Source: a virus
Taxonomy: Duplodnaviria; Caudoviricetes
Strand: one strand, 5' to 3'
Virus record (IMG/VR): IMGVR_UViG_3300037484_000186
Location: 1 to 46,966 of that record
DNA: 46,966 nucleotides
Shown: positions 2,830 to 30,788 of the stretch, piece by piece
How positions within the stretch are numbered: the stretch's first letter is position 1
Layout of the letters: every line of letters starts with the position of its first letter
Program-made: the position numbers and the translations under genes
Notes under the pieces: model-generated
Seen by the model: only the letters and a program-made list of their open reading frames with translations
The model's database searches: none
What the model was told of the DNA's origin: nothing

Positions 2830-2875
2830 AGGGGGTTACCCGCCTATCTGCAAAAAGGTAGGTGAGTAACCCCCT
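2830..2875 (+). promoter_or_regulatory. Long intergenic stem-loop, possible RNase III processing site
   Basis: AGGGGGTTAC-CCGCCTATCT / AGGTAGGTGA-GTAACCCCCT, about 20 bp imperfect stem with no U-tract; same position as T7 R18.5 between terS and terL. Confidence 0.45.
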
Positions 2876-2943
2876 CCCATTGCGTATTGCGTCGAGCCCA
2901 CCCCCCAAAGAATTAGAAATTTGGGCATTCCTGAAGAGGTTTT

Positions 2944-4605
2944 ATGACCCCTGACGAAAAATTGGTCCTTGAGGACTTCCGAAACTTCCTTTTCATAGTC
3001 TGGAAGCACCTACGATTGCCTGACCCTACCCCCATGCAATACGAGATCGCGGAATACCTCCAGCACGGCCCGAAACGACAGATCATCGAGGCATTCCGTG
3101 GGGTGGGGAAGAGTTGGATCACATCTGCATTCGTTTTATGGAGGTTGCTACGTGACCCCAATGAAAAGTTTCTTATCGTATCAGCTTCCAAGCAACGATC
3201 CGATGACTTCTCGATATTTACCCAGCGACTCATTACCGAGATGCCCATTCTGCAACACCTTGCTCCCACAGACGACCAGAGAAGCTCTAAGATTGCATTT
3301 GATGTTGCTCCAACCAGAGCTGCGCATGCTCCATCCGTCAAATCTGTGGGTGTATTTGGACAGATGACTGGTTCTCGTGCTACTCACATCATCGCTGATG
3401 ACGTGGAGGTGCAGAACAACAGTGACACGGAAGATAAGAGGGACAAGCTCCTGCAGACGGTCATGGAGTTCGAAGCCATCATCGTCCCTGAGCTTGGGCG
3501 CATTACTTACCTCGGTACGCCACAGACAGAAGCTTCGGTCTACAACAAGCTTAGGGAGAAGGGGTACCACTGCCGCATCTGGACCTCAAGATACCCATCT
3601 GAATCAGAACTCAGCAAGTATGAGGGGTTCCTAGCCCCTTCGATAGTGGAAGCGCTGGCGAAGAATCCTAAGTTAGTCGGGTCTCCAACTGACCCCAAGC
3701 GCTTCACTGCGATAGACCTCTTGGAAAGAGAGGCCGCGTACGGGCGCACAGGCTTTGCGCTTCAGTTCATGCTGGACACAAGCCTCAGCGACATGCTGCG
3801 TTTCCCGCTCCGAACATCCGACCTCATCGCTCTGGAATGTGCAGGGCTGAAGGGGCCTATCTCTATCGGATGGGCGTCGGGCTTGGCTCAACAGATTAAG
3901 GAGTTACCTAACGTAGGTTTCACTGGAGACCGCATCTTCAGACCTATGTTCATTGATGAGAAGTGGACGGAGTATGAAGGTGCGGTAATGACCATAGACC
4001 CATCAGGGAGGGGAAGAGATGAACTCGGTTTTGCGGTGGTTAAGCAACTTATGGGCGTACTGTATTGCACGTGTTGTGGAGGACTACAAGGCGGCTACGA
4101 AGAATCAAACCTAGTCAAGCTAGCGAACATAGCCAAGGATCACCAAGTCAAGTACATCATCATTGAGTCTAACTTCGGTGATGGCATGTTCACTAAGATT
4201 CTTCAGCCTATCCTTGGAAAGATATACCCATGCACTACCGAAGAGATCAGACACAATGTCCAGAAGGAAAAGAGGATTATCGATACACTAGAACCAGTCA
4301 TCAACAGGCATAGACTGGTCTTCGATGTCGATCTGCTTAAGAAAGACTTGGTGTACGAAGACGTTCGATACTCCCTCCTCTACCAGCTCACCCACATCAC
4401 CAAGGACAGAGGAAGTCTGAAGCACGACGATAGACTGGATGCCTTAGCTATGGCTGTCGCCTACTGGGTTGAGAGCATGGTTAGAGACGAGAAGACAGCG
4501 ATAGATGACCATCGTTCTCGACTTCTCGATGAAGAACTCACCACCTTCATGGACAACATACTGGGCTCTACACCTAAGAGTAACTCTTGGTGTAGACTTA
4601 GGTAG
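2944..4605 (+). CDS. terL: Terminase large subunit (T7 gp19-like)
   Basis: Walker A AFRGVGKS, Walker B IIADDVE, YLGTPQ, nuclease motifs IDPSGRGRDE and HDDRLDAL. Confidence 0.97.
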   Translation: MTPDEKLVLEDFRNFLFIVWKHLRLPDPTPMQYEIAEYLQHGPKRQIIEAFRGVGKSWITSAFVLWRLLRDPNEKFLIVSASKQRSDDFSIFTQRLITEMPILQHLAPTDDQRSSKIAFDVAPTRAAHAPSVKSVGVFGQMTGSRATHIIADDVEVQNNSDTEDKRDKLLQTVMEFEAIIVPELGRITYLGTPQTEASVYNKLREKGYHCRIWTSRYPSESELSKYEGFLAPSIVEALAKNPKLVGSPTDPKRFTAIDLLEREAAYGRTGFALQFMLDTSLSDMLRFPLRTSDLIALECAGLKGPISIGWASGLAQQIKELPNVGFTGDRIFRPMFIDEKWTEYEGAVMTIDPSGRGRDELGFAVVKQLMGVLYCTCCGGLQGGYEESNLVKLANIAKDHQVKYIIIESNFGDGMFTKILQPILGKIYPCTTEEIRHNVQKEKRIIDTLEPVINRHRLVFDVDLLKKDLVYEDVRYSLLYQLTHITKDRGSLKHDDRLDALAMAVAYWVESMVRDEKTAIDDHRSRLLDEELTTFMDNILGSTPKSNSWCRLR

Positions 4606-4733
4606 ACATGAAGGTGTCTGCTTAGGTGTCCTGTATAGGTTTCAGTGGTAGGTGTTGGTCATGCAAACACCTAAGTAACACCTAAATGACGAGTGTAGAC
4701 TTAGGTTTCTGCTTAGGTATACACATAAGCATA

Positions 4734-4749
4734 CTCCTGTAGTGGGGGG
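4734..4749 (-). promoter_or_regulatory. Putative phage RNAP promoter, leftward copy
   Basis: Minus strand reads CCCCCCACTACAGGAG, 15/16 identical to the motif at 26689. Confidence 0.4.
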
Positions 4750-4763
4750 AAAGGTGTAACCTA

Positions 4764-5117
4764 TTGAAAAGTAAGGTGTCCCTCAAGAGGGTAAAGATCC
4801 CTGAAAAGGTGTTGATTGCAGGAAAGTGGTGGAAGCTGGGTCACCTGACGAAGAAGGAAGCCCAGAGCAAAAACAAGGATGGACTCTTCACTCACGGACA
4901 GACCTACGATGGAGCCAAGATCATCAAGTATTACCCTGTGATGCACGGAGAGGAGATGCTAGATACTCTTCTCCATGAAGGTCTCCATGCAATACTCTCG
5001 GAACGCTCATGGGAGTTAGGTGGCTGGAAGGATGAAGAAAGAGCAGTCAGGCTGCTTGTCTGCGATGTGATGACATTTCTCAAGCAAGTTGCTGATGTGA
5101 ACCTCAAAGAAGCATGA
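4764..5117 (+). CDS. HExxH zinc metallopeptidase-like protein
   Basis: DTLLHEGLHA motif followed by DEERAV; G-rich SD upstream of a TTG start. Confidence 0.65.
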   Translation: MKSKVSLKRVKIPEKVLIAGKWWKLGHLTKKEAQSKNKDGLFTHGQTYDGAKIIKYYPVMHGEEMLDTLLHEGLHAILSERSWELGGWKDEERAVRLLVCDVMTFLKQVADVNLKEA

Positions 5118-5865
5118 TTGTCAACTTAGGGGGCACCTATTGTCAACCTGAGGGTTGCTTAGGTGCCCCCTTGTATTTTGGTAGAAATCTCTGAAACACC
5201 TACCGATGTTTGCGGGGGGTCAAAAACCCCCCATAGGGTCAAGAACCTGAGTCCAGTACACACCTAAGCAACACCCAATTCAACACACAAAGCATGTCCT
5301 AAGATCCTAACACCCTAATACATAAGAGATAACAAGGGACAGTGAGTCCACTGCTACACCAGAGCATGTCTATTGGTGGTCCAAGTGAGTGCTCAGGTGT
5401 GTGCGCAGCGCGTGTGTTTACTACCACCTGCCTCTTTTCAACAGCACACCTAAGCATCCAAGCGCACACCTGAGCACTGCTTGTGTCCTACCAAAGCCAT
5501 GCTTCCAAAGCATGGCGCTCGCCTAGCATTGGCTCACGCCACTTCGAGGCACTGCTCTTGTGCCTAGCCTATGGTGTGCCCACTCGCTCGCTATGTGTCT
5601 GGGCTATTGAACATAACCGCCCAGCCACCACCTACAAACGATTCGCTCATGTAATGCAGGGCGCTATTCGCTCATCCCGGTATCGCTCGACTCGGTCTGT
5701 GGGGTGTGTGTGTGGCTCGCTCCACTCCGAGGTGCCCCTGCAAATACGCTAAGGTCACGCCACAGGTGTTGCTTGTGTCATGCCCTTAGCAGCAGGGGGA
5801 AGCGTCACCTCTCCGTTCCACTTTAGTGAAGCCACACACTCTAAGACGCTGGAAGGAGCCAGAGC

Positions 5866-6180
5866 ATGACAAGCTACGAACTGAATCAGATGCTGATCGA
5901 AAGGTGCAACAGGCAGACCGAGAAGATCACCTGCCTCAAAATCGAACTCGAAGAGGCACAGGCAGTCAACTCAGATCTCAAGTCCACAGTGCGTGTAACT
6001 ATGGATGCCCTGAGCGTAGCAAAGGGCGGATACCAAGTGCGCAAGCAGAACCAAGGCACAGTCGAGAACCTCAGGCTTGCACTCGAAGGGCTCTTGACTG
6101 CACCAGAAGAGCAGCATGACGCGGCAATCGAGTTCGCAACCAAGATCATGTCACTGACAGAAAGCGAGGTCAGCTTCTAA
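5866..6180 (+). CDS. Hypothetical early protein, coiled-coil
   Basis: AAGGAG SD; helical heptad-like composition; stop overlaps the next start. Confidence 0.7.
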   Translation: MTSYELNQMLIERCNRQTEKITCLKIELEEAQAVNSDLKSTVRVTMDALSVAKGGYQVRKQNQGTVENLRLALEGLLTAPEEQHDAAIEFATKIMSLTESEVSF

Positions 6181-6419
6181 TGCCCTACACCCGAGCAGAC
6201 ATAGGCAAGACAGTAGCACCTCACATACCACAACCACTGCACGAAGAACAAGTGCAGTTCACAGACGATAGACCAGACGAACCTACCAAGTGCTCGATAT
6301 GCAAGGGCACAGGCGAGGTCAGGTTCGACTACATCAACAAGCACAAGGTCATCATCAACGGATATGTTTTCAAGCCGGGTGTGAACGTGGTCTGCAAGCC
6401 GTGCGAATGCATGGACTGA
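6180..6419 (+). CDS. Small zinc-finger protein
   Basis: CSICKGTG and CKPCEC motifs (DnaJ-like CxxCxGxG). Confidence 0.65.
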   Translation: MPYTRADIGKTVAPHIPQPLHEEQVQFTDDRPDEPTKCSICKGTGEVRFDYINKHKVIINGYVFKPGVNVVCKPCECMD

Positions 6420-6762
6420 TCTAACCTTATGGCCTTAGGCAGAGGCGAGAGCCAAAGCCGAAGGCCATAGGTCTACTGATTATAAACAAAGTCAACGGCA
6501 ACACCCAAGCAGACACCTAACGCATACAAAGGAGGAGACGGTGAAAATGAATAGAGCTTGGTTCACCGGCTCTCGTTCAAATCCCTTCCTCCGCTACCGC
6601 AGGGGGTGGTCTTCGCTCAAACATGATGCTATCGCTCGACGAGGCGTCACCGCCCTGCAGTCGCTCCGGCCCTTCGGGTGCAGGGATTTTCACTCATTAG
6701 ATCATGGCGGAGGCGGAGCCGAGCATGCTCGCTCCTTCGTCGCTGTGCGAAAGGAGCTGACC

Positions 6763-6909
6763 ATGCACGAAGTCCACGGACAGAACAAGAAAACCCTCAA
6801 ATACGAAATGATTGCAAGCGAGATCAGCAAGCAAGAGCTGGATATGCTTCTCAAGCAGGAGCGAGACAACTACGTCTACATGACAGTATCGCGACTGCGA
6901 TATCGGTAG
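6763..6909 (+). CDS. Hypothetical early protein (48 aa)
   Basis: AAGGAG SD before ATG 6763 (MHEVHGQ...); the upstream part of the track ORF crosses a structured non-coding block. Confidence 0.6.
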   Translation: MHEVHGQNKKTLKYEMIASEISKQELDMLLKQERDNYVYMTVSRLRYR

Positions 6910-6961
6910 CCAACCAAGATCAAAGGTGAGGTGCTGAAAGCACCGAACGAAGGAGGAAGTC

Positions 6962-7201
6962 ATGATCCGTCTGAGCCCGAACGTGATCTACAACGCCTCG
7001 ATCAAGCCGCTGATCGCCAAGGACGAGAAGACCAAGGAAGTGAAATGGCCGGGATTCAGGCTCGACCACTACGTCAAGAGCCCGAACTTCCTCGTCACCG
7101 TCACGTCCACTGCGGACACCAGCAAGTACGAGCCCATCGACCGCAAGGCGGGCTCCAAGCACGCCGAACAGATGGCGGCTGCGCGGGTCACGAGCACGTA
7201 G
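6962..7201 (+). CDS. Hypothetical early protein
   Basis: AAGGAGG SD; strong C/G third-position codon bias. Confidence 0.7.
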   Translation: MIRLSPNVIYNASIKPLIAKDEKTKEVKWPGFRLDHYVKSPNFLVTVTSTADTSKYEPIDRKAGSKHAEQMAAARVTST

Positions 7202-7284
7202 CGTAGACCAAGCTCTCATGCATCAACCGTGCGTCAGCCCGAGAGGGCGAGGGTGCGTGAGGGCTTGGATGTATGCTTTTGTGC

Positions 7285-7313
7285 TTGACAAGTCTTTCGG
7301 GGCTTGCTATGCT
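7285..7313 (+). promoter_or_regulatory. Host sigma70-type early promoter
   Basis: TTGACA (7285-7290), 17 bp spacer, TATGCT (7308-7313); the spacer carries the inverted repeat CAAGTCT-TTCG-GGGCTTG. Confidence 0.75.
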
Positions 7314-7338
7314 TGGGAGAATGGCGAGAGAGGAGGCT

Positions 7339-7425
7339 GTGAAAATGAGTAAAACCGAGCAGTGGCTGCTCCTGTTCAACGTGGTCATATGGGGCTACGT
7401 GGCGCTGTGGATAATCGCGAGATGA
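7339..7425 (+). CDS. Micro-ORF, 28 aa hydrophobic membrane peptide
   Basis: AGGAGG SD, GTG start; MKMSKTEQWLLLFNVVIWGYVALWIIAR. Confidence 0.6.
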   Translation: MKMSKTEQWLLLFNVVIWGYVALWIIAR

Positions 7426-7438
7426 AAAGGAGAAGGCT

Positions 7439-7537
7439 GTGAAAACCCTGTGGCTATTGCTGGGCTTTGGTTCGTGGGAGTCAGGTGTGGGCGTTGCATT
7501 GCTCATGGCGGCGCTGAGGGACAGGGGGAGATTGTGA
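7439..7537 (+). CDS. Micro-ORF, 32 aa hydrophobic peptide
   Basis: AAGGAG SD, GTG start; MKTLWLLLGFGSWESGVGVALLMAALRDRGRL; GTGA overlap with the next ORF. Confidence 0.5.
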   Translation: MKTLWLLLGFGSWESGVGVALLMAALRDRGRL

Positions 7538-7650
7538 AAATCAACTTCCAGCACAGCAAGGTGAACCAACTCACGGTCACTCTCAAGCGAGAGTCACCGG
7601 GGGAGTACTACGGTGCTTATTACCAGCGTGTGAACCGCAAGTACCTTTAA
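7534..7650 (+). CDS. Micro-ORF, 38 aa
   Basis: GGGGGAG SD, GTG start; MKINFQHSKVNQLTVTLKRESPGEYYGAYYQRVNRKYL. Confidence 0.55.
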   Translation: MKINFQHSKVNQLTVTLKRESPGEYYGAYYQRVNRKYL

Positions 7651-7660
7651 GGAGGAACCA

Positions 7661-7870
7661 GTGGAATCAGAGCACACATGGCACTCCATTGGCGACAGGG
7701 TGCAAAGAGCGCGCCCAATCGATGCCATAGGCCACACCAAGCAACTCACAGGTCCGATCTTGACTGTGACCAAGATCCGCAACCACAAGCCCATTGATGG
7801 GCCAGAGATGCGCAACACCGTAGCAGAGCTGGACGATGGCTCATGGGATTTCGTCTGGAACTTGTATTAA
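7661..7870 (+). CDS. Hypothetical early protein (small beta/SH3-like)
   Basis: AAGGAGG SD; 69 aa. Confidence 0.65.
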   Translation: MESEHTWHSIGDRVQRARPIDAIGHTKQLTGPILTVTKIRNHKPIDGPEMRNTVAELDDGSWDFVWNLY

Positions 7871-7882
7871 GAGGAGGAGCTA

Positions 7883-8017
7883 GTGAAAATCCTGCTGATC
7901 GTCTACACCCTGCTCTTGCTGTGTCTCTTCGAACTCAGAACACACGATCCAATTGCTGAGGCATGGCAGTGCAGGTGTGACACCTGCTGTGAATATCTTG
8001 AGGAGGTAGCGAAATGA
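7883..8017 (+). CDS. Micro-ORF, 44 aa with N-terminal hydrophobic helix and Cys cluster
   Basis: GAGGAGG SD; MKILLIVYTLLLLCLFELRTHDPIAEAWQCRCDTCCEYLEEVAK. Confidence 0.55.
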   Translation: MKILLIVYTLLLLCLFELRTHDPIAEAWQCRCDTCCEYLEEVAK

Positions 8018-8094
8018 GTCTGGTCATCATTCTGCTGTGCACCACTGGCTGGGGCTACTTGCTCTACCGGGTCATCGAGGACAGCGAGCTGTGA
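8014..8094 (+). CDS. Micro-ORF, 26 aa hydrophobic peptide
   Basis: GAGGAGGT SD and ATGA overlap; MSLVIILLCTTGWGYLLYRVIEDSEL. Confidence 0.55.
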   Translation: MSLVIILLCTTGWGYLLYRVIEDSEL

Positions 8095-8144
8095 TCGAGC
8101 TGATGCTTGCTGGTGTGCTGATCTGGTTCGCGTTGTTCGATTGA
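8091..8144 (+). CDS. Micro-ORF, 17 aa hydrophobic peptide
   Basis: GTGA overlap, GAGG upstream; MIELMLAGVLIWFALFD. Confidence 0.4.
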   Translation: MIELMLAGVLIWFALFD

Positions 8145-8151
8145 CCAAGAT

Positions 8152-8214
8152 GTGGCATTTACCGCTGGTCTGCAGCCAGCTGACTGACCCCGGTCAAGGT
8201 AAGGGGTATGCCAC
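8152..8214 (+). ncRNA. Putative branched structured RNA preceding the tRNA-like pair
   Basis: Nested helices GTGGCAT/ATGCCAC and TTACC/GGTAA enclosing hairpins GCTGG-TCTGCAG-CCAGC and TGAC-CCCG-GTCA. Confidence 0.4.
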
Positions 8215-8220
8215 TCAAAT

Positions 8221-8309
8221 GTTCCTATCGTCTATTTAGGACGCCCGACCTCAATCGGGGAAAGCAGGTAACTAGCTCCATAGGAGCGGGAATCCGGCTG
8301 GGAACGCCA
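8221..8309 (+). tRNA. Atypical tRNA-Glu-like RNA copy 1 (6-nt anticodon loop CCUCAA, T-loop expanded by an extra hairpin)
   Basis: Acceptor GTTCCTA/TGGGAAC + G + CCA; D-stem GTCT/GGAC; anticodon stem CCCGA/TCGGG; T-stem GCAGG/CCGGC with a 25-nt loop containing GCTCC-ATA-GGAGC. Confidence 0.75.
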
Positions 8310-8317
8310 AATTGAAT

Positions 8318-8389
8318 GTTCCTATCGTCTAAAGAGGACGCTGGGCCTCAACCCAGAGATGCAGGTGTCAAAACCAGCTGGGAACGCCA
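8318..8389 (+). tRNA. Atypical tRNA-Glu-like RNA copy 2 (6-nt anticodon loop CCUCAA)
   Basis: Same acceptor and D stems; anticodon stem CTGGG/CCCAG (compensatory changes relative to copy 1); T-stem GCAGG/CCAGC, loop TGTCAAAA; encoded CCA. Confidence 0.8.
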
Positions 8390-8409
8390 ATTACTTTGAG
8401 GAGACTGTG

Positions 8410-8637
8410 ATGATGAAACTGCAGCACTACTGTCCAGATTGGGACTACCTCTTGATCGGACCGGGGATGCCTGAGATGGAGGCATGCTTGTGTGTGGCTG
8501 TCACTCCTCCTATTGGGTGCAGCAACATCAAGAAACCTGATTGCTGTGACCACCCAGAGCGTGGGGTCTGTGAAGGAAAGTACGGAGAACTCACCGAAAG
8601 GTTATACACTTCACCGCTGGTGCACAAAGATGCCTGA
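8410..8637 (+). CDS. Small Cys-rich hypothetical protein
   Basis: GAGGAG SD just after the tRNA-like pair; HYCPDWDYL...CLC...CCDH...C. Confidence 0.55.
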   Translation: MMKLQHYCPDWDYLLIGPGMPEMEACLCVAVTPPIGCSNIKKPDCCDHPERGVCEGKYGELTERLYTSPLVHKDA

Positions 8638-10720
8638 TCCAGAAATAATAGTAGGCCCTGAATGGCAAAGAATCGAAATAGATCCTCGTGGTTTTATGCT
8701 GATTGGCGGGCTCACAGGGCGGATAGAACACAGAGAGGAGGCTCCAGCAATGCCTTTGCCTTTCACCAGAGGCAGGTTGTACCAACTGATGGAAATCGGA
8801 AGCGGAGACGCATGGTATCAAAACGACCGTAACCACTACAAATATCGTCTTTGGTACTACGATTTTGAACATAATACAAACGGGGCACAAGGAGAAGGCC
8901 CAGAGGCTAACTTCTGGGGTGGACATTTCATTCCACTCGATCCTGCGCTTCGTGGTGGGAGCCAAAGTAGCTGTGTCTGTTTCTGGTCAGGGCGTTGGGA
9001 AGGAATGACTCTCAGTGTTGGAAGTCTCCACACCGATGATGTGAGAGCGTGGCACAATCTTTCAAGCGTCGCACAACAGATAGCATTGGGCAATATACCA
9101 TATGAACCACTACCCCCACCAGACGGGGCTTTTAATGCTGAGCAGATCTACATCATTCTTCATGTTGGTGATGGAGATATGTTCCAAGGACAGCAAAGTC
9201 GTTTTGTAGGGCAGTTGGTCAGAATTCGTAATTGGGAAGGACGATACCGGGGTGGGGGTTACACCGGCTGTGGTCTCCGGGCTCTCAATCCATACTGGCG
9301 CTACAGAACTGTGACTATGCACAGTGTGTTGCTGGAAGAATTCAAAGGAGAAGTCCCTGAGTACAAACCCAATCCTCCTCCAAAGGAGCGCATGAGACCA
9401 GCGGGAGGTGAACCGAAACTCATGGAAGAGAAAACGGTGGATATCAAAATCGAGAACGGAGGAGGGAATCTCGAAGCTGTGTGGGATTTAGTGTGGCACA
9501 CTTACAGAGACTTTCTTTATGATTGTGATGGTGCAGCCGGATTAACACATGACCAACGGCTTGTACTACGGAAAACTCAAGATGATCTTTATACTGGTAT
9601 TTCGCATATTGATCTCGATAAGTTTTACACAGAAAAAGGTGCAAAGATCACTCGTCCGATCAAAGAACTGCTTGTAAAACACATCGGGAAAGAAGCAACA
9701 GCCCCCCTGTTTGCTGCTTTCTGCAAGGCAGTTGGGGAACTCTATGCAACAGTCGATGCTACTGCCACACTGCATCCTGTGTATTTCACCAACGGGAAAA
9801 TGGGTTCATGTGGAGACAGTGATTCCTGTTTCGGACCGGGAGGGTGCAACAGCTACAACGGGAGGTTTATTGATAAATCAATGTCCATGGGGGTAATCAC
9901 GATTGCACCCAAAGACGCAAGGTACGCAAAAGGACGAGTTATTTTTTGGATTCTGGATGCAACTCATGCGCACATCCTGAACAAATACAGTCGGAGCGGA
10001 GAGCGTGAACTTCCCTACAGTGTTTTTGTTCGCGCGCTGGAAGTATTGTCCGGTGCGACTCTTTCGTTCGCCCATAAATCGGGTGAAACTCTTCCGATTT
10101 ATGTTAATCACGGATATCACCTCTGCACAGCGATCGACGGAAACTTCTCTTCTATCACCGAAGATTTCCGGTGGGTTTGCCCTGCTTGTGGCCACAGAGG
10201 GAGTCCTAATTCTTTCGAAAGTGAGAGTGATGGGACTAGGCATTCAATTGGGTGTTGCCAAGATTGTTTGGGTGCCCAAGAGGAAGATGACGATAACATG
10301 CATACATGTGTGTACTGCGAAGAAATAGTGCATGATGACGATGTGCGGTTTCCCAACGATGAACCTGTTTGTACCAGCTGTTACGACGAACACTTCTTTT
10401 CTTGTGCGCACTGCGGAAATTCCTACGATAACGATAATGGTGTTGAAGTACACAGGCGAGGACGTTCAGTTACTGTGTGCTCTGGGTGCTATGAAAACTG
10501 CTACGCAGAGTGTCCTGAGTGCGAGGAACAATTCGAAATAGACAAAATGATTGGGCATGATGAAGAATACTACTGTTCCTCCTGCGCAGATAACTGCTTA
10601 GGTACATGTATTACGTGTAAGGAAACATTCAAAACAATTGAGCTGGATGCAGATGACCGGTGCGAAAACTGTGCTGAGGAGGCAGAAAACGATTCAAAAG
10701 CGGAAGCGAGGGCATCGTGA
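8630..10720 (+). CDS. Large multidomain protein: duplicated N-terminal domain, central putative enzymatic domain, C-terminal array of CxxC zinc ribbons
   Basis: ATG 8630 overlaps the previous stop (alternative start 8750 has a GAGGAGG SD); about ten CxxC pairs in the acidic C-terminal part; central SC...KGRVIFW...NKYS motif. Confidence 0.75.
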   Translation: MPDPEIIVGPEWQRIEIDPRGFMLIGGLTGRIEHREEAPAMPLPFTRGRLYQLMEIGSGDAWYQNDRNHYKYRLWYYDFEHNTNGAQGEGPEANFWGGHFIPLDPALRGGSQSSCVCFWSGRWEGMTLSVGSLHTDDVRAWHNLSSVAQQIALGNIPYEPLPPPDGAFNAEQIYIILHVGDGDMFQGQQSRFVGQLVRIRNWEGRYRGGGYTGCGLRALNPYWRYRTVTMHSVLLEEFKGEVPEYKPNPPPKERMRPAGGEPKLMEEKTVDIKIENGGGNLEAVWDLVWHTYRDFLYDCDGAAGLTHDQRLVLRKTQDDLYTGISHIDLDKFYTEKGAKITRPIKELLVKHIGKEATAPLFAAFCKAVGELYATVDATATLHPVYFTNGKMGSCGDSDSCFGPGGCNSYNGRFIDKSMSMGVITIAPKDARYAKGRVIFWILDATHAHILNKYSRSGERELPYSVFVRALEVLSGATLSFAHKSGETLPIYVNHGYHLCTAIDGNFSSITEDFRWVCPACGHRGSPNSFESESDGTRHSIGCCQDCLGAQEEDDDNMHTCVYCEEIVHDDDVRFPNDEPVCTSCYDEHFFSCAHCGNSYDNDNGVEVHRRGRSVTVCSGCYENCYAECPECEEQFEIDKMIGHDEEYYCSSCADNCLGTCITCKETFKTIELDADDRCENCAEEAENDSKAEARAS

Positions 10721-11802
10721 GCATCGACTACTCCAAGCACCACCTGATTGATATCCTGAAGTCTACACCTGAGCAACTCCTGAAGGATGCTTTGGCCCTG
10801 TCACCTAAGGCAATCGCAGGAGATGGATTCGTGTTTGTGCCGGGGGACAAAAGGATGCCACTTCTGGTAGCGCACGTCGACATTATACACCCAACAATAC
10901 CTGCGTTGGTCATGTGGGATGAGAAATCTGCATCATTAGTTTCACCAACAGGTCTTGGTGCCGACGACAGAGCAGGTGTGTTTGCAATTCGGACTTTGCG
11001 GGACAACATAACCCCAAAACCTGCTCTGCTTTTCTGTGATGAAGAAGAGATTGGTGGAGCAGGAGCATTTTCAGCAGCTTTCGGGGTCTACGATGAGCTG
11101 TGTGAGTTCCCATACTTCTTGGAGATCGACCGACGAGGACACGGAGAGTGCGTGTTCTACAACAATGAGGGGCCAGCCTTCACAAAATACGTGGAGAAGT
11201 TTGGGTTCAAGGAGGAGTGGGGCAGCTTCAGTGATATCTCGATTCTTGGTGAAGAGTGCAAAAAGTGTTCTGTGAATGTTTCCGCTGGATACCACGGAGA
11301 GCACACCAAAGAGGAACGGCTGTTCCTTGGTAGTCTGGAGAACACTATCAAGAAAGTCAAACGGATGCTCTTGGGTGCTTTGCACACCAAGGGTGGTTTG
11401 ACGTTCAAGCTCCCGAAACCTAAGTATAAGTTCTCAAGATCCAGCTATCGTTATGGGTTCGGGAACACAACTTCAGTTCATGGCGGTCTTGAGTGGTATG
11501 ACCGTACAGGTTGGCGTGACCCAGATGAAGACGAGTTCAATGCACGTTATCAGTTAGGCGTGGATGGGGCATATGCATATAGTGCACCTAATAGCATTAC
11601 AAAGTTCTCAGATTTTGAAAACACAGAAAAGGAGTACTCACGAAGATCAGAAAAGAGACAGCTTGACTACTGCGAGTGGTGTGGTGCTACGGCAATGCTT
11701 AGATACACCGATCTCTACTATGGTTACTGCTGCCCAGCATGTATCAAGGATTTGGAAGAGATTGGTCATGGTGACTATTCCAGCGAAAAATACGCTGGGT
11801 AG
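10717..11802 (+). CDS. M28/M20-clan zinc peptidase-like protein with C-terminal zinc finger
   Basis: Metal-binding motifs AHVD, LGADDRAG, DEEEIGG, EIDRRG, SD and YHGEHT; C-terminal CEWC/CPAC; GTGA-coupled to the upstream gene. Confidence 0.85.
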   Translation: MSIDYSKHHLIDILKSTPEQLLKDALALSPKAIAGDGFVFVPGDKRMPLLVAHVDIIHPTIPALVMWDEKSASLVSPTGLGADDRAGVFAIRTLRDNITPKPALLFCDEEEIGGAGAFSAAFGVYDELCEFPYFLEIDRRGHGECVFYNNEGPAFTKYVEKFGFKEEWGSFSDISILGEECKKCSVNVSAGYHGEHTKEERLFLGSLENTIKKVKRMLLGALHTKGGLTFKLPKPKYKFSRSSYRYGFGNTTSVHGGLEWYDRTGWRDPDEDEFNARYQLGVDGAYAYSAPNSITKFSDFENTEKEYSRRSEKRQLDYCEWCGATAMLRYTDLYYGYCCPACIKDLEEIGHGDYSSEKYAG

Positions 11803-11877
11803 AGGAGAAACGTGATGTGGTGGTGTTGTTCGGCAGACTATCCCAATCACGATGAGAATTGCAAAGGAGGAGAAGCA

Positions 11878-12198
11878 ATGAGAGTGCATTTCGTTCTGAA
11901 CCACGGAGGAACCCCAGCGAGTAAGCTGGCCGACGTGGAGATCCACTTCGAAGAGGGATTGCTGGCTGGCATGAAGCTCGTCGGCTGTTCCGTCTGGCGA
12001 ACCAAGAAAGGCGAGAAGCCGACTGTCCTCGTACCGTCGCGCTCCTATGCAACTGCTAGTGGGGTTCGCTATTTCGAACTTCTCCGAGCTGAGGACGAGA
12101 AATCCGAGGAGAAACCTGTGAAAAGGTTCAAAGAGTACATCCAAGGGGAGTACATGAAGATCGCTGGGCTTCCTGTTGATGGTGAACCGGCGAACTAA
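11878..12198 (+). CDS. SpoVG-like nucleic-acid-binding protein
   Basis: AAGGAGG SD; KLADVEIHF...MKLVGCSVW...VLVPSRSY...YFELL...IQGEY matches the SpoVG pattern. Confidence 0.65.
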   Translation: MRVHFVLNHGGTPASKLADVEIHFEEGLLAGMKLVGCSVWRTKKGEKPTVLVPSRSYATASGVRYFELLRAEDEKSEEKPVKRFKEYIQGEYMKIAGLPVDGEPAN

Positions 12199-12467
12199 TG
12201 GGCGCAGCTAGCGAAGCTTTCGATCAACTCAGCAAGGAAGAAAGGCTGACGCTGCTGGAGATGTTGGGGTTCGATGAGCCCCAGCGTTACCAGATTCGTG
12301 AGTCTATTAACCTCACCTATGGGTGTATGTACTACGAGGTGCAAGAAGAACTGGATCGATGTTTCATCCGGGGTGTCTGGAGGCGTCCCGTTGAACTCGT
12401 GTTTGGCAAGAATACCTTGAAAAGATCCAAGCGAAGCATCCCCCGCCGACGCAAGAAGGTAGCTTGA
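12198..12467 (+). CDS. Hypothetical protein with basic C-terminus
   Basis: Coupled TAATG start; 89 aa. Confidence 0.6.
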   Translation: MGAASEAFDQLSKEERLTLLEMLGFDEPQRYQIRESINLTYGCMYYEVQEELDRCFIRGVWRRPVELVFGKNTLKRSKRSIPRRRKKVA

Positions 12468-12488
12468 ATCGAACCGGGGAAATAATTC

Positions 12489-12517
12489 TTGACAGCATAT
12501 CTATTCCAACCTACTAT
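12489..12517 (+). promoter_or_regulatory. Host sigma70-type promoter for the regulator-integrase operon
   Basis: TTGACA (12489-12494), 17 bp spacer, TACTAT (12512-12517); AT-rich upstream segment. Confidence 0.75.
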
Positions 12518-12702
12518 ATTCAGGTGGAAGCCGACTGCTTCTTACTCTGAAGGGGGTGACACTTGGTCGGATGCGAAGTGGATGGGGTGAAAATTACGGT
12601 TGCAGAAGGTGCGTGGGTTTCTGTAGAAACGCCAGACCACAAAGGAGAACTATTCATCGAAGCCGATGGAATGACAGACAAACAGAAAGGGGACGTGATT
12701 CG

Positions 12703-13074
12703 ATGGATCGCAGGATTAGCAGCACTCGCCGGGTCGTTTCCGTTATCAGAGAGCTTGTTGACCCCGAAGTGCCCCTGCAGCAGCTAGCTCTCCTCCTGCT
12801 GATCGCTGAAGCTGGAGAGGAAGGAATCACCATGCCTGATGCCGGGGATAAATTGGGTATGGGTCAGACCTCCGTGTCAAAGAACGCGAAGGCGCTGGGA
12901 AGATATGCCGAGCAGCACGGCGGTTTCATGACGATCAAAGGTCTTGAACTAGTCGAGGCTCGCCCGGATTTGCTGGAGCGTCGTAGGTTGCGAATGACGT
13001 TGACTCCCAAGGGGGAGCGGGTCATCAAGCGTATCATGGATGAGGTGAGTAGTGGCAGTTTACAAGCGGGGTAG
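12703..13074 (+). CDS. MarR-family winged-helix regulator (putative repressor or directionality factor)
   Basis: EGITMPDAGDKLGMGQTSVSKNAKAL HTH and DLLERRRLRMTLTPKGE wing; AAAGGGG SD; adjacent to the integrase as in other temperate T7-like phages. Confidence 0.85.
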   Translation: MDRRISSTRRVVSVIRELVDPEVPLQQLALLLLIAEAGEEGITMPDAGDKLGMGQTSVSKNAKALGRYAEQHGGFMTIKGLELVEARPDLLERRRLRMTLTPKGERVIKRIMDEVSSGSLQAG

Positions 13075-14047
13075 GGTTTGGTACTACAACATTCTTGTGA
13101 ACAACAAGCGCATCAGGCGGTCGACCACGGCGGTTGATGAACGTGGGGCAGAGGTCGAAGCTGAGCTTGCGAGGCGGAAGTATACTGCCGAAGCTTCGGT
13201 TCCTACCACAGGTCTGTCACTGAAATCAGCCATCATGCGGTGCTACTCTGAGGAGTGGCGCAACAACAAGGATGGGCTCCGCACGGTCAACCGAACACTC
13301 AAGATTGTGGATATACTGGGAGACATCCCGCTGAGGAAGGTGGATGAGACCGCCATCTCACAGCTCACCACCGCCCTCACGGAGAAGGGCCTTGCACCAG
13401 CGACTATGAATCGGTATCGTGCATACCTGAGGCGTGTCCTGAATGTAGCCCATAGGAAGTGGAGGGAGATTGACCGAGTGCCCTATATCCAGAACACGAA
13501 GGAAGTGCCAACTAGGTTCAAGGTGTACACCGAGGAAGAGGAGAGACAGATCCTCTGCTACAGCCCGCTTGAGTTCAGGGATCTAGCGATACTCCTGCTG
13601 GACACCGGACTCCGACTCAGTGAAGCTCTGAGGCTCGACTACAGGAACTGTTCCGTAGATGTCCGAGGTGGGATTATCACGGTCTGGGCAGACGCAACCA
13701 AGGGGGAGAAGTCTCGGGGAATCCCGATGACCACCCGTGTTGTCGAGATGTTCAACCGTCGTTGGACCGAAATATCGAGGAGAGAAGAAGCTGCTTGGAT
13801 CTTTCGGTTCCGAGACGAGCACGAAGTCGAGCGAATCTGGAACAGGTTCAAGAGATCTCAGGGTATCACCGATCCTGCGTGGGTGATCCACGCGATGCGC
13901 CACACCTTTGCATCTCGTTTGGTTCAACGAGGTGTGGACCTGTACGTGGTGAAAGAGTTGCTGGGGCACTCTACCATCAAAGTCACAGAAAGGTATGCCC
14001 ACCTGAACCCAGCGAAGCTGGCTCAAGCCATGAGTGTGCTGGAGTAG
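13052..14047 (+). CDS. int: Tyrosine recombinase/integrase
   Basis: Catalytic residues in TGLRLSE, TKGEK, HAMRH, LLGH and TERYAH; N-terminal arm-binding-like segment. Confidence 0.95.
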   Translation: MAVYKRGRVWYYNILVNNKRIRRSTTAVDERGAEVEAELARRKYTAEASVPTTGLSLKSAIMRCYSEEWRNNKDGLRTVNRTLKIVDILGDIPLRKVDETAISQLTTALTEKGLAPATMNRYRAYLRRVLNVAHRKWREIDRVPYIQNTKEVPTRFKVYTEEEERQILCYSPLEFRDLAILLLDTGLRLSEALRLDYRNCSVDVRGGIITVWADATKGEKSRGIPMTTRVVEMFNRRWTEISRREEAAWIFRFRDEHEVERIWNRFKRSQGITDPAWVIHAMRHTFASRLVQRGVDLYVVKELLGHSTIKVTERYAHLNPAKLAQAMSVLE

Positions 14048-14121: not shown

Positions 14122-14160
14122 GGCGGCATAGCCAAGCGGTAAGGCAGAGGACTGCAAATC
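14122..14160 (+). mobile_element. attP: Putative attP core: 5' half of a tRNA-Cys(GCA)
   Basis: GGCGGCATAGCCAAGCGGTAAGGCAGAGGACTGCAAATC covers the acceptor 5' strand, D-arm and anticodon loop; no 3' half follows; 75 bp downstream of int. Confidence 0.85.
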
Positions 14161-14367: not shown

Positions 14368-16761
14368 ATGACCAGCAGTTACCAACAGCAATTGGCACTG
14401 GAGCAAGAAGGCGTATCGTTAGGCATCAAGAAATACCGGGAAAATCTGCTGGATCGAGACCTCACTGACCTACCTCCCGGTCTCAGACTGATGAAAATGG
14501 TCATGGAACCCTTCAGCAAACGCATAACAGAGTGGCTGGATGAACCCGGAGCTGGTCAAGCAAACCGTTGGAAACCCTTCTTTCGGCAGTTCGACCCAAA
14601 TGTAATTGCTTTCTTAACAGCAAAGAACATCATCAACCACCTAGCTTCTAGTGTAACAAGATCTTATCAAAGCATAGCGTTGGGTGTCACGGACATGTTG
14701 TGTTCTCACCTAGACTATGAAGCTTTCAAGAGAGAATCTCCGGGTCTGGTGTACACCATAGAGAAAGATAACAGATGGGCTTCAGCATCCCACAGAAGAG
14801 CTACCCTCCTAAGAGCAAAGAAAAAACACATGGGTGACTCAACAAGTATCCCTGCTCCGACCAAACTTCATATAGGACATCGCTGCATAGAGATGTTCAT
14901 AGAGTCTACGGGGTTGGTGGAGAAGGTGTTGCTCAGGAGAGTTTCTGGCAAAGAGAACTACATTCTGCAAGCTACTAAGATCACTCAGGAGTGGCTTGAG
15001 AAGGCCAACAGCGATTGTGAACTCCTGCAACCCATGTTCTTTCCCATGATCGTTACCCCTAGGGATTGGACCAGTCCAGTCGGAGGTGGATTCCTCACCA
15101 ACCACGGTACTCTCCAAGTCCCACTTGTCAAGACAAACCACAAGGAACTGATGGCGCTGGCAGACCAAGATCTGAGCAAAGTGTACGCGGCCATCAACGC
15201 TGTCCAACATACTGAGTGGCGGATCAATCGTCGTATCCTTGATGTCATGTCTGAAGTTTGGTTGGTCGGGGATAGAGCGGGACTTCCTGCCAAGGAAATT
15301 CAAGAGATCCCCCGCAAAACTTGGGAGGAGACAGCGAACCCAACTCGGGAACAACTGATAACGTGGAAAAAAGCAGCTACCACAGTTTATGAGCAACACG
15401 CGAGGAACAGCAGCAAACGCATAGCCACAGAAATCAAACTTCACATTGCCAAGAGGATGATGAATGAGCAGAAAATCTACTTCGTCTGGAACCTCGACTG
15501 GAGAGGGCGCATGTACCCGATCCAATCGTTCGTCAATCCTCAAGCAGATGATAGCGGAAGAGCGCTTCTTGAGTTTGCTGATGGAAAAAGTCTGGGGAGC
15601 GATGGGGCGTTCTGGCTCGCCGTACACGGGGCCAACACCTTCGGCTACGACAAAGCGAGTTTCGAAGAAAGGGTAGAGTGGGTGATCGAGAATGAACCAG
15701 CTATTCTCGGCACAGCAGACGACCCGATGAGCATGCTGGCGTGGTGGGAACAAGCAGACTCTCCATTCCAGTTTCTTGCTTTCTGCTTTGAATGGGCGGG
15801 GTACAGACAAGAAGGGGAAACATATGTTTCGAATTTACCTGTTGCTCTGGATGGTTCATGTAACGGCCTCCAGAACTTTTCGGCTATGCTTCGGGACGCG
15901 GTGGGCGGTAAAGCTACTAATCTGGTCCCATCTGAAAGCCCAAGCGATATCTATCAACAAGTTGCCAACCTACTCAGCGAAAAAGTTAGCGTTGATAGCG
16001 CGGCTGGAGAAAGACTGGCTCTTCCGTGGGTTGGTCACATTGATCGAAAGATAACCAAACGAGGCGTAATGACCACGCCCTACGGCGTGACGCGATACGG
16101 GCTGACTAAGCAACTCCAATTTGAAGTCGAAAAGATCGACAAGAATTACCTCGGAGTGGAGCTGGCAGGGCCGTATTACATGTACCTCAGTAGTCACCTC
16201 TACGATGCCATAGGCGAAGTCGTGGTAGCGGCTCGCAGTGCTATGGTGTGGCTACAAAAGGTCGCAATGGTGGTCGCCAAGACCGACAAGGTAGTCCGGT
16301 GGTCGACACCCATCGGTTTCACCCCGTGCCAAGAGTACCACCGGCAAAAGCTAATTCGTGTGGATACACTCTTCGGTGGCATCAGGGTGCGTTTTGGTCT
16401 CTGGAAGGACACCATCAGAATCGACAAACGTAGGATGTCGAATGGCATCGCTCCCAACTTCGTTCATTCTCTCGATGCATCTCACCTGATGAGCACCATT
16501 AATCTATGCCGAGAAAATGGGCTACAAAATTTCAGCTGCGTTCACGACAGCTTCGGTACTTTGGCTGCAGACGCCGGAAAACTCGCCTATTACCTGCGAG
16601 AAGCCTTTATCACACAGTACAGCGGGGATGTTCTTCAATCGTTTCGCGATGAGGTGATCGCACAGCTTCCACCTGAACTGGTGGATGAAATTCCACCGCT
16701 ACCTGAGAAGGGAGATCTCGATCTTCAGAAGATCAGGGAATCACGCTATTTCTTTGCCTGA
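14368..16761 (+). CDS. Single-subunit T7-like DNA-directed RNA polymerase
   Basis: DWRGRMY, motif A DGSCNGLQ, motif B RKITKRGVMTTPYG, PNFVHSLDA, motif C VHDSFG. Confidence 0.98.
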   Translation: MTSSYQQQLALEQEGVSLGIKKYRENLLDRDLTDLPPGLRLMKMVMEPFSKRITEWLDEPGAGQANRWKPFFRQFDPNVIAFLTAKNIINHLASSVTRSYQSIALGVTDMLCSHLDYEAFKRESPGLVYTIEKDNRWASASHRRATLLRAKKKHMGDSTSIPAPTKLHIGHRCIEMFIESTGLVEKVLLRRVSGKENYILQATKITQEWLEKANSDCELLQPMFFPMIVTPRDWTSPVGGGFLTNHGTLQVPLVKTNHKELMALADQDLSKVYAAINAVQHTEWRINRRILDVMSEVWLVGDRAGLPAKEIQEIPRKTWEETANPTREQLITWKKAATTVYEQHARNSSKRIATEIKLHIAKRMMNEQKIYFVWNLDWRGRMYPIQSFVNPQADDSGRALLEFADGKSLGSDGAFWLAVHGANTFGYDKASFEERVEWVIENEPAILGTADDPMSMLAWWEQADSPFQFLAFCFEWAGYRQEGETYVSNLPVALDGSCNGLQNFSAMLRDAVGGKATNLVPSESPSDIYQQVANLLSEKVSVDSAAGERLALPWVGHIDRKITKRGVMTTPYGVTRYGLTKQLQFEVEKIDKNYLGVELAGPYYMYLSSHLYDAIGEVVVAARSAMVWLQKVAMVVAKTDKVVRWSTPIGFTPCQEYHRQKLIRVDTLFGGIRVRFGLWKDTIRIDKRRMSNGIAPNFVHSLDASHLMSTINLCRENGLQNFSCVHDSFGTLAADAGKLAYYLREAFITQYSGDVLQSFRDEVIAQLPPELVDEIPPLPEKGDLDLQKIRESRYFFA

Positions 16762-29768: not shown

Positions 29769-30788
29769 ATGGCTTCAGCTGCAACTGTAGCGTTGTTCGG
29801 TGAACTTGCTGGTACTGGTGGTGCTGCGCCTACGATGGCCCAGCGTACCGCCCTGTTCCTCAAGGTGTTCGGCGGTGAGGTTATCACCGCGTTTGAGAAG
29901 AAGTCGCTCATGCTCGACAAGCACCAGATTCGTACCATCCAGTCCGGGAAGTCTGTTCAGTTCCCCACGACTGGTCGCGTCATGTCTGCTTATCACGTTC
30001 CGGGGACGGAGCTGGTGGGTCAGGCAGTTGTAACGAACGAGCGCATCATCACCATCGACGCGTTGCTCACCTCCAGTGTCTTCCTCGACACGTTGGACGA
30101 GGCGATCTCGCACTTCGATGTCCGCTCGATCTACTCCACGGAGATGGGGCGTCAGCTTGCCCGCAACTTCGATGAGTCCGTGATGATGGAGGTCTTCCGG
30201 GGTGCGAAGTCTGCTCCTCTGATGTCTCACAACCTCGTGGCTGCGTCCAAGGTTCAGTATCTCGGCGCGTCCTACGATGGGTTCTCGGTTGCGAATAAGG
30301 CGGCTGCGCTTGCTACCGCCATCTTTACTCAGGCTGCAATTTGGGATGAGCAGTTCCTCGATGGGGAGCGGTACCTCGCCCTGAAGCCTGTGGACTACAA
30401 CGCCCTCGTGCAGAACACCGCAGCGATCAACTCCGACTGGGGTGGGGCAGGTGCGTATTCGGACGGCACGGTTCTCCGCATTGGTGGAGTCAACATCATC
30501 AAGGCTCCTGCGCTCACGGGCGTGGTTGAGGTTGACACGACTGCGTTGACCACTGGTGTCGCGGCTGGTGCTGCGGTTCAGGTTGGGCACGGTGCTGCTG
30601 GTGACACCGACGTTCGAGCGATCATGTTCACCAAGGACGCGATTGGTACCGTCAAGCTCATGGACATCAGCACTGAGGCCGGGTACGACATCCGGCGTCA
30701 GGGTACGCTGCTCGTCGCCAAGTATGCGATGGGCCACGGCGTTCTGAATCAGGACGGCTGCGCGTACTTCGCGAACGACGCTAGCTAA
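29769..30788 (+). CDS. Major capsid protein (T7 gp10-like)
   Basis: ALFLKVFGGEVITAF, RTIQSGKSVQFP, ITIDALL, DVRSIYSTEMG, KYAMGHGVL; AAGGAG SD. Confidence 0.97.
   Translation: MASAATVALFGELAGTGGAAPTMAQRTALFLKVFGGEVITAFEKKSLMLDKHQIRTIQSGKSVQFPTTGRVMSAYHVPGTELVGQAVVTNERIITIDALLTSSVFLDTLDEAISHFDVRSIYSTEMGRQLARNFDESVMMEVFRGAKSAPLMSHNLVAASKVQYLGASYDGFSVANKAAALATAIFTQAAIWDEQFLDGERYLALKPVDYNALVQNTAAINSDWGGAGAYSDGTVLRIGGVNIIKAPALTGVVEVDTTALTTGVAAGAAVQVGHGAAGDTDVRAIMFTKDAIGTVKLMDISTEAGYDIRRQGTLLVAKYAMGHGVLNQDGCAYFANDAS

Follow-up and report, generated by a model that had tools for sequence, protein, structure and literature searches.

A stretch of phage DNA of 46,966 bases (the window), a complete-looking virus record with a permuted genome, encodes two tandem RNAs that resemble tRNA-Glu and have anticodon loops of only six nucleotides. 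The best explanation of both RNAs is that each is a dedicated glutamate donor for the GNAT-like enzyme encoded next to them, a reading to which we give a probability of roughly 0.4 and toward which the gene context tilts.

The source virus is, by its gene set (terminase, integrase, repressor-like gene, single-subunit RNA polymerase, and T7-type replication and virion genes), a temperate T7-like phage, and its RNA polymerase is at most 40% identical to that of any cultured phage. Both RNAs lie in the early region, between genome-end repeats (~4600-5500) and the integrase and polymerase genes. Short CCTAAG/CTTAGG repeats at 4590-5500 flank the place where the terminal repeats of the permuted genome probably join. 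The 5' half of a tRNA-Cys gene between integrase and polymerase is likely the attP core; it occurs exactly in 10 of 401 genomes (phylum of G062, an 'uncultured delta proteobacterium' genome), with other phyla barely sampled, and so names that phylum as a candidate host group only. L038 likewise holds a tRNA-Cys 5' half (7395-7470), with a full tRNA-Met(CAT) immediately after it. Sigma-70-like sites in the region are no more numerous than in shuffles, and blastn against cultured phages with the RNA region or the RNA itself gave no match.

Features of the early region (all on the plus strand)
Feature	Position	Strand	Basis or remark
Sigma-70-like promoter match, candidate only	7285..7313	+	10/12 matches with TG; upstream of small early ORFs and the RNAs
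tRNA-Glu-like RNA, copy 1, 89 nt	8221..8309	+	sequence, folds, parse, model R1 74 bits
Copy 1 T-loop, 25 nt, with inserted hairpin	8269..8293	+	folds; hairpin 8275-8287
tRNA-Glu-like RNA, copy 2, 72 nt	8318..8389	+	sequence, folds, parse; seed of alignment A3
Small Cys-containing ORF	8407..8637	+	RBS 8398-8403, starts 9 nt after copy 2 CCA
696-aa S-C-motif protein	8630..10720	+	profile/alignment, models, fold searches (weak, Z up to 6.2)
M28/M20-type two-metal peptidase	10717..11802	+	PHROG 4191 'peptidase', E 1.9e-17
Tyrosine integrase	13052..14047	+	context: temperate phage
tRNA-Cys gene, 5' half, likely attP core	14122..14158	+	kept in three phages
T7-like RNA polymerase	14368..16761	+	context: early region ends here

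Two cloverleaves with six-nucleotide anticodon loops

The original prediction placed two tandem cloverleaves here, 8 nt apart and each with a 7-bp acceptor stem, G73 and an encoded CCA, and that is what the sequence holds, in a 7/5 acceptor/T-stem geometry. The anomalies it described are likewise seen in both copies: the 6-nt anticodon loop CCUCAA (8249-8254 in copy 1, 8346-8351 in copy 2), a 5-nt D-loop without GG, no TTC, and a purine mismatch at position 51:63 (A.G in copy 1, A.A in copy 2). Both have a 4-nt variable region with A46, and their anticodon stems, as had been pointed out, differ in sequence yet pair fully. The T-loop of copy 2 is 8 nt long, not 7, and the hairpin in the T-loop of copy 1 (5 bp with an AUA triloop) had gone unmentioned.

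Standard tRNA tools had been expected to miss these RNAs or to call them pseudo or undetermined, and ARAGORN indeed reported 0 tRNA genes in the window; an Rfam search of 3000-14000 returned nothing at the RNA coordinates and no Y RNA match either. A scan for the exact geometry found 2 sites in the window; in 40 resampled windows with the same dinucleotide frequencies it found 0. The folding z-scores, taken alone, are modest (-2.0 and -2.3). In an alignment of 17 distinct 72-nt homologues, pairing holds in 96.9% of cells, and both partners vary at 11 of the 21 pairs, a covariation matched by 0 of 500 shuffles but inflated by relatedness, with 8 invariant pairs partly fixed by the search pattern. 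The proposal that covariation here reflects a selected structure is supported by these homologues. Pseudogene decay was rejected on the covariation together with the fixed anomalies, and a CRISPR-like or tandem repeat was rejected, there being just two diverged copies.

The first search patterns constrained the 5' acceptor letters and the D arm and nothing else, leaving the anticodon loop free. The patterns thus build in the invariance of the 5' acceptor and the D-stem, but not that of A46, the anticodon loop, CCA or the 3' strand of the acceptor. They returned 28 stretches from the viral set, with true cloverleaves on 2 contigs, and 60 from the metagenome set, with 17 true loci; chromosomal homologues were rejected because 0 of the 19 stretches matched in species genomes fold as the family. 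Twenty-one of the 23 distinct non-window homologues obtained with loop-free patterns have a 6-nt C(C/U)UCAA loop, the other two having a 7-nt loop with C33 and a stunted arm, and a 7-nt loop containing U33 is found in none of the 23. The anomalies are thus conserved rather than decaying.

A model built from 17 homologues (R1) recovered a copy with an 8-nt loop at the syntenic position in L037 and a second RNA type with an 8-nt D-loop, and a distant clade of the neighbour protein led to a 6-nt-loop copy on a different backbone (L118). A second pattern, with the 6-nt loop fixed and the D-loop freed, returned 85 stretches (80 with flanks), which brought in a 224-kb phage (L138/G006), one partial copy (L157) and a further T7-like phage, L162/G007, that has two copies. 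The 6-nt loop is thereby found in at least three other phage backbones. In total there are 33 distinct odd sequences: 29 with clean 6-nt loops (a script count of 30 includes the mis-parsed L063), one with a 7-nt loop and C33, two with 8-nt loops and one stunted. Since the homologues come mostly from one phage clade, they are not independent events. The copy at L138:5145 was rejected as a normal tRNA-Glu(UUC), as it has an 8-nt loop.

Genomes carry 1-3 copies, which sit among variable small genes and are spread between early genes. Hairpins are inserted into the T- or D-loop in window copy 1, L043, L045, L075, L048, L056 and L162; in L043, L045 and L075 the T-loop insert resembles that of copy 1, with different paired stems. 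In L048 (34-141) and L056 (1777-1884) the T-stem is interrupted at the EF-Tu site by two inserted hairpins, and in L162 (4832-4928) a hairpin lies inside a 29-nt D-loop.

Several other loci drew attention during the searches. L007 has an extra base-paired non-coding stretch (2850-2940, minus strand) between its tRNA-Glu-like copies 2 and 3, with no R1 match, and an assembled relative aligned at window 8315-8365 has an ordinary tRNA 3' end directly upstream of the family copy. Other tRNA-like genes with 6-nt loops on different bodies occur in large phages (L237 16963, L241 16168, L245 16044), and more such genes (~10.8-15.4 kb) lie in L260, L261, L265, L271 and L301; ARAGORN returns '???' for these genes of both sets. 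It labels as SeC(UCA) some tRNAs that have a short variable arm and a CTTCAAA loop (L266 6584 and 10543, L155 5994), possibly opal readers or relatives of the short-loop family. Two unrelated carriers, L118 (4168-5487) and L138, have Ro60/TROVE genes near the RNA; L138 (2083-3522, 6018-6719, 9876-11387) encodes Ro60/TROVE, an enzyme of the CCA-adding type and, immediately behind the RNA, a peptidase S51. None of the 49 window proteins scanned against PHROGs is a TROVE protein.

Glutamate identity, decoding and EF-Tu

According to the available portion of PMC9976931, the E. coli GluRS identity set consists of U34, U35, C36, A37, weak G1-C72 and U2-A71, U11-A24, U13-G22:A46 and the lack of nucleotide 47. 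The set quoted in the original prediction matches it and is kept in both window copies, which have G1:C72, U2:A71, U11:A24, U13-G22:A46, no 47, U35, C36 and A37. Position 34 is C in both, a point against charging by GluRS, for which a modified U34 acts as a strong determinant in E. coli (PMC9976931, same portion). Across the 33 sequences the loop keeps Y-U-C-A in 31 (CUC in 25, UUC in 6), CCA is encoded in 28, G1:C72 is present in 30, and A46 is found in 32 by script and in all 33 with L063 parsed by hand. An alternative reading of CCUCAA as a UCA (Sec/opal) anticodon was rejected because position 34 switches between CUC and UUC, giving CUUCAA as well, and the 7- and 8-nt variants retain CUC-A.

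Loss of the elbow motifs, also put forward originally, holds for both window copies and for most homologues (G18G19 and TTC are each lost in 30/33) but is not universal, as two members, the G007/L162 copies, retain a normal T-loop and L162 also has the D-loop GG. Because the G007 copies keep a normal T-loop, the core feature of the family is, on the sequences compared, the short anticodon loop and not elbow loss.

The tRNA-Glu genes of the candidate hosts have normal loops and the same type of D-stem and T-stem as the RNA family, which is therefore a derived tRNA-Glu. Canonical tRNA-Glu with an augmented D helix (candidate-host L339-L346) shares with it the D-stem, G1:C72 and a short variable region with A46, and further G73 in most, a related T-stem and CUC/UUC anticodons; unlike the short-loop RNAs, it has 7-nt loops with U33, the D-loop GG and the T-loop TTC. 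By this comparison canonical bacterial tRNA-Glu is clearly the ancestor of the short-loop family, and the family itself is likely a GluRS-recognised, non-decoding variant of tRNA-Glu. In G006 a 6-nt-loop copy adjoins a normal tRNA-Glu(CUC) within a tRNA array, so the short-loop RNA is not a replacement, and normal tRNA-Glu genes are present in the candidate hosts searched. An elongator tRNA should not tolerate hairpins in its T- and D-loops, at the elbow and the EF-Tu site; the inserts therefore argue against an ordinary elongator role. We found no literature on decoding by 6-nt loops or on GluRS acceptance of a loop without position 33.

The purine mismatch at 51:63, proposed originally as a means of avoiding EF-Tu, is present in both window copies and in 15/33 distinct sequences altogether, with two more carrying an insert there and one unparsed. 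We scored EF-Tu affinity with Table 2 of PMC3239215 and, as the reference, a value of -10.1 obtained from rows of its Table 3; these rules do not cover a 51:63 mismatch (as in both window copies) or inserts, and 15 members were scorable. The values are -9.6 (eight members), -10.1, -10.5 (two), -9.3, -9.2 and -8.1 kcal/mol (two), against a mean for Glu of -10.3/-10.4 kcal/mol in the same available part of PMC3239215. Thus just 2 of the 15, at -8.1 kcal/mol, are as weak as the known EF-Tu outliers, the remaining 13 falling at -9.2 to -10.5, and C51-G63 is found in the normal tRNA-Glu of candidate hosts too. The EF-Tu argument is thus supported only in part: avoidance, modest by these rules, stays plausible for the family but is not its main signal.

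The adjacent gene pair

The small ORF behind the RNAs has a relative after the RNA of L007. The 696-aa protein that follows consists of an N-terminal part, a helical domain, a GNAT-like domain (~9731-10183) and CxxC zinc-ribbon repeats, and the GNAT-like domain carries the invariant Cys of the S-C motif; among 28 relatives K, C, R, N and N are invariant. Most homologues are ~410 aa long with one GNAT-like domain. The window protein has ~270 extra N-terminal residues (8630-9430), which most homologues lack and to which nothing in Pfam matches.

Searches with the 696-aa protein against Pfam, PHROGs and PDB sequences gave zinc-ribbon noise or nothing, Foldseek with its domain models gave nothing, and BFVD gave two unnamed matches; the S-C-motif protein of G007 has no match among cultured phages. 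An Atlas lead was PcfJ (0.88), with the family on 36% of that cluster. Residues 268-518 were modelled (two confident models, domain pLDDT 88.8), and in a structure search 42 of 50 rows were titled acyl-, acetyl- or aminoacyl-transferases, at Z 4.4-6.2. Among the tRNA-dependent ones were Sbb17 (Z 5.2), FemX (4.9), FemA, L-PGS (4.8) and MprF (4.4); CoA-dependent acetyltransferases tie with or outrank these, and the fold match is weak, with a best Z of 6.2 at an rmsd of ~4 A and none at Z 8. The use of aminoacyl-tRNA by GNAT-fold enzymes is established, and Fem-type enzymes have two GNAT domains (PMC12945691, available part); Glu-tRNA use is named in that part for LanB dehydratases and for no GNAT enzyme. 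Like FemX, Sbb17 and MprF/L-PGS, the neighbour protein has a GNAT-like beta-sheet core by structure search, with weak scores; unlike them, it shows one GNAT-like domain in the modelled residues 268-518, an invariant Cys and a zinc-ribbon tail. We predict from the models that it is a GNAT-like transferase.

In the adjoining peptidase, H53, D55, D83, E110, E111, D138 and H196, which we take to be metal ligands, are invariant in 10/10 homologues, two of which have weak Pfam M28 matches. The peptidase occurs in 278 viral contigs and in 56 of 50,697 cultured phage records.

An S-C-motif protein follows the RNA in 12 of the 19 loci examined, and 6 of the other 7 loci are shorter than 1.7 kb. G006 and G007, near-complete records that are unrelated to each other and were reached by way of the RNA, each carry an S-C-motif gene that abuts a peptidase gene: in G007 the two come right after its two RNAs, the S-C-motif gene being very distant, recognised by eye and below domain-profile detection, and in G006 the pair lies 27 kb away. 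Fragment L119 has the pair without the RNA, and the RNA-bearing fragments L157 and L063 have no pair within the available sequence.

Starting from the peptidase, R1 matches occur in 20 of 49 other peptidase-bearing viral records, and the 30 extracted of the 34 R1 matches listed from the 49 records are ordinary tRNAs; so are, in the 10-kb flanks of 76 peptidase loci, 36 of 44 R1 matches, the other 8 having been dropped as identical duplicates. No 6-nt loop was found among the R1 matches examined from the 49 records or from these flanks. A structural rescan of the 76 loci gave only one degenerate 6-nt CUUCAA gene, without G1:C72, U11:A24 and CCA, and the cultured phages H1 and Calle_1 have the gene pair with a normal tRNA-Glu. 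The gene pair thus accompanies the RNA across backbones and mostly occurs without it; the link is one-way.

Around the 76 other peptidase loci no tRNA type is commoner than Glu and Leu, which tie for first place, a ranking that has no background control. Twenty of 26 clusters with tRNAs near peptidases include a Glu tRNA, 12 have at least two Glu genes, and several have degenerate T-loops. Normal 7-nt loops and degenerate T-loops are combined in tRNA-Glu(CUC) genes near the peptidase genes of L297 (17516), L298 (14055), L267 (13168) and L289 (17106), which are possible intermediates. Cellulophaga phage Calle_1 (NC_062744.1) has two identical normal tRNA-Glu(UUC) genes, at 38961-39035 and 41414-41488, 3-6 kb from the pair; in NC_062744.1 the annotation of the second is shifted by ~50 bases.

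A proposed glutamate donor, its rivals and its relatives

If the RNAs are glutamate donors, an early transcript from a host-polymerase promoter would be processed to CCA-ended mature RNAs, host GluRS would charge these with glutamate, and the short anticodon loop and broken elbow would keep the charged RNAs off the ribosome. That the RNAs are transcribed early, processed, charged and excluded from decoding, all together, we consider probable. The GNAT-like transferase, encoded 240 nt downstream, would then move glutamate to an acceptor, perhaps a host or phage protein or one in the cell envelope, a step about half as probable as the preceding ones together. The adjacent peptidase may trim or reverse the glutamyl mark, and phages with the enzyme pair but no short-loop RNA would use ordinary tRNA-Glu. 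Tentatively, these elements would make up a three-part glutamylation module of a U33-deleted tRNA-Glu, a Cys-dependent GNAT writer acting early in infection and an M28 peptidase as eraser or trimmer. The one-way co-occurrence counts against the donor reading, because the enzyme pair does not need the short-loop RNA.

The main rival, which we regard as unlikely, is a decoy or sponge: by mimicking tRNA-Glu the RNAs would soak up a host anti-phage effector directed against tRNA-Glu or the GluRS-tRNA complex, and the short loop would make them uncleavable or useless to the ribosome, an idea of the same standing. Candidate effectors are an anticodon nuclease, a CCA-modifying or acylating toxin and a HipA-type kinase. 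The early region of T7-like phages houses counter-defence genes, and the position of the RNAs there, their number of 1-3 per genome among variable small genes, the Ro60/TROVE genes of two carriers, the CCA-adding enzyme of one and the prevalence of the enzyme pair without the RNA all fit a decoy. A nuclease decoy, however, would need only part of what is kept, namely the charging determinants of the acceptor, CCA and D-stem in addition to the anticodon, and the fact that one rare gene pair recurs with the RNA in unrelated backbones also speaks against it. A competitive inhibitor of host GluRS, lowering host Glu-tRNA or modulating the stringent response, would suit a non-decoding body with all recognition elements; the phage itself needs Glu-tRNA (Glu codons make up 4-9% in ten window genes), and the intact CCA and acceptor suggest turnover rather than blocking, which makes this very improbable indeed.

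The remaining readings give the RNAs other clients. A ribosome-proof Glu-tRNA might feed the host glutamyl-tRNA reductase (HemA) and raise tetrapyrrole synthesis (B12, heme, siroheme); a B12-dependent class II ribonucleotide reductase (PF21995, 24573-26666) is among the window's gene products, and the reductase GluTR reportedly reads a U13-G22:A46 / missing-47 core, the same as in the short-loop RNAs. Yet no tetrapyrrole genes are present among the 49 window proteins scanned and the link to the GNAT-like/peptidase pair is left unexplained, so that we find this improbable. We judge it no more probable that the cloverleaves are processing signals, excised by RNase P/E/Z so that the polycistronic early message is divided and the ribosome-binding sites behind them become accessible, much as RNase III sites punctuate early mRNA in T7. 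A Shine-Dalgarno sequence often lies within ~20 nt after the CCA (window copy 2, L043, L046, L078, L086, L091, L118, L138), position -1 is a pyrimidine in 32/33 and the copies are spread between early genes, but the fixed anticodon-loop sequence, the switching between Glu anticodons at Y34 and A46 all go unexplained, copy 1 is followed by copy 2 and no gene, and the G006 copy lies inside a tRNA array. A working but odd elongator tRNA-Glu, either a nuclease-resistant isoacceptor or a frameshift-promoting tRNA, might account for L162 with its normal T-loop and D-loop GG, for the members with near-normal predicted EF-Tu affinity (-10.1 to -10.5), for the existence of 6-, 7- and 8-nt loops alike and for the major capsid gene (29769-30788), which prefers GAG over GAA by 12:1. 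Against this, U33 is absent from the 6-nt and 7-nt loops, G18G19 and TTC are missing from nearly all members, several T- and D-loops hold hairpins, and GAA and GAG are equally used over ten window genes together (239:233); we think such an elongator distinctly improbable.

Among known systems, the glutamate-donor reading recalls the non-proteinogenic tRNA-Gly of Staphylococcus, donors for FemXAB (PMC9976931 and PMC3239215, available parts). In both cases there is a second dedicated tRNA that keeps its synthetase identity but not the elbow motifs, and a GNAT-fold transferase is its presumed client; here the amino acid is Glu rather than Gly, the RNA is phage-encoded, and charging and partner are predicted from sequence. 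The conserved change is an anticodon loop one base short, whereas in staphylococcal tRNA-Gly, as the available parts have it, it is mainly in the T-stem. Helicobacter pylori tRNA-Glu(UUC), an extra copy beside a normal one, is a weak EF-Tu binder (-8.0) flagged by its T-stem alone (PMC3239215, available part). The short-loop RNA is likewise an extra tRNA-Glu beside a normal copy, and two family members (L162) reach -8.1 kcal/mol; unlike the chromosomal H. pylori gene as described there, most members are only mildly weakened or unscorable. Allo-tRNAs and selC* have 8/4 or 9/3 acceptor/T stems, some of them in phages and some proposed to be non-translational, in the part of PMC5389517 at hand; like the short-loop RNAs, they are non-canonical cloverleaves overlooked by standard annotation, and unlike them they lack the 7/5 geometry with Glu identity.

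Bacterial Y RNAs (YrlA-type tRNA mimics) have a Ro60-binding stem and a Ro60 gene nearby; this assignment was rejected on the Rfam result for 3000-14000 and the lack of TROVE among the 49 window proteins. The RNAs are members of none of these four groups. We found no description of the short-loop RNA or of the module in the open-access text searched, so that a listing in a phage ncRNA screen is possible; among dedicated tRNAs the short-loop RNA is a real and apparently undescribed variant.

The usual view of phage tRNAs is as codon supply or as replacements against nucleases, and the programs that count them overlook the short-loop family entirely. If the RNAs are built for charging without decoding, they would be to phages what the cell-wall tRNAs are to staphylococci, arrived at by a different route, with one base less in the anticodon loop. 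They would give a widespread orphan phage pair, the S-C-motif GNAT-like protein and the M28 peptidase, a testable substrate, and may offer a natural design for ribosome-orthogonal aminoacyl donors.
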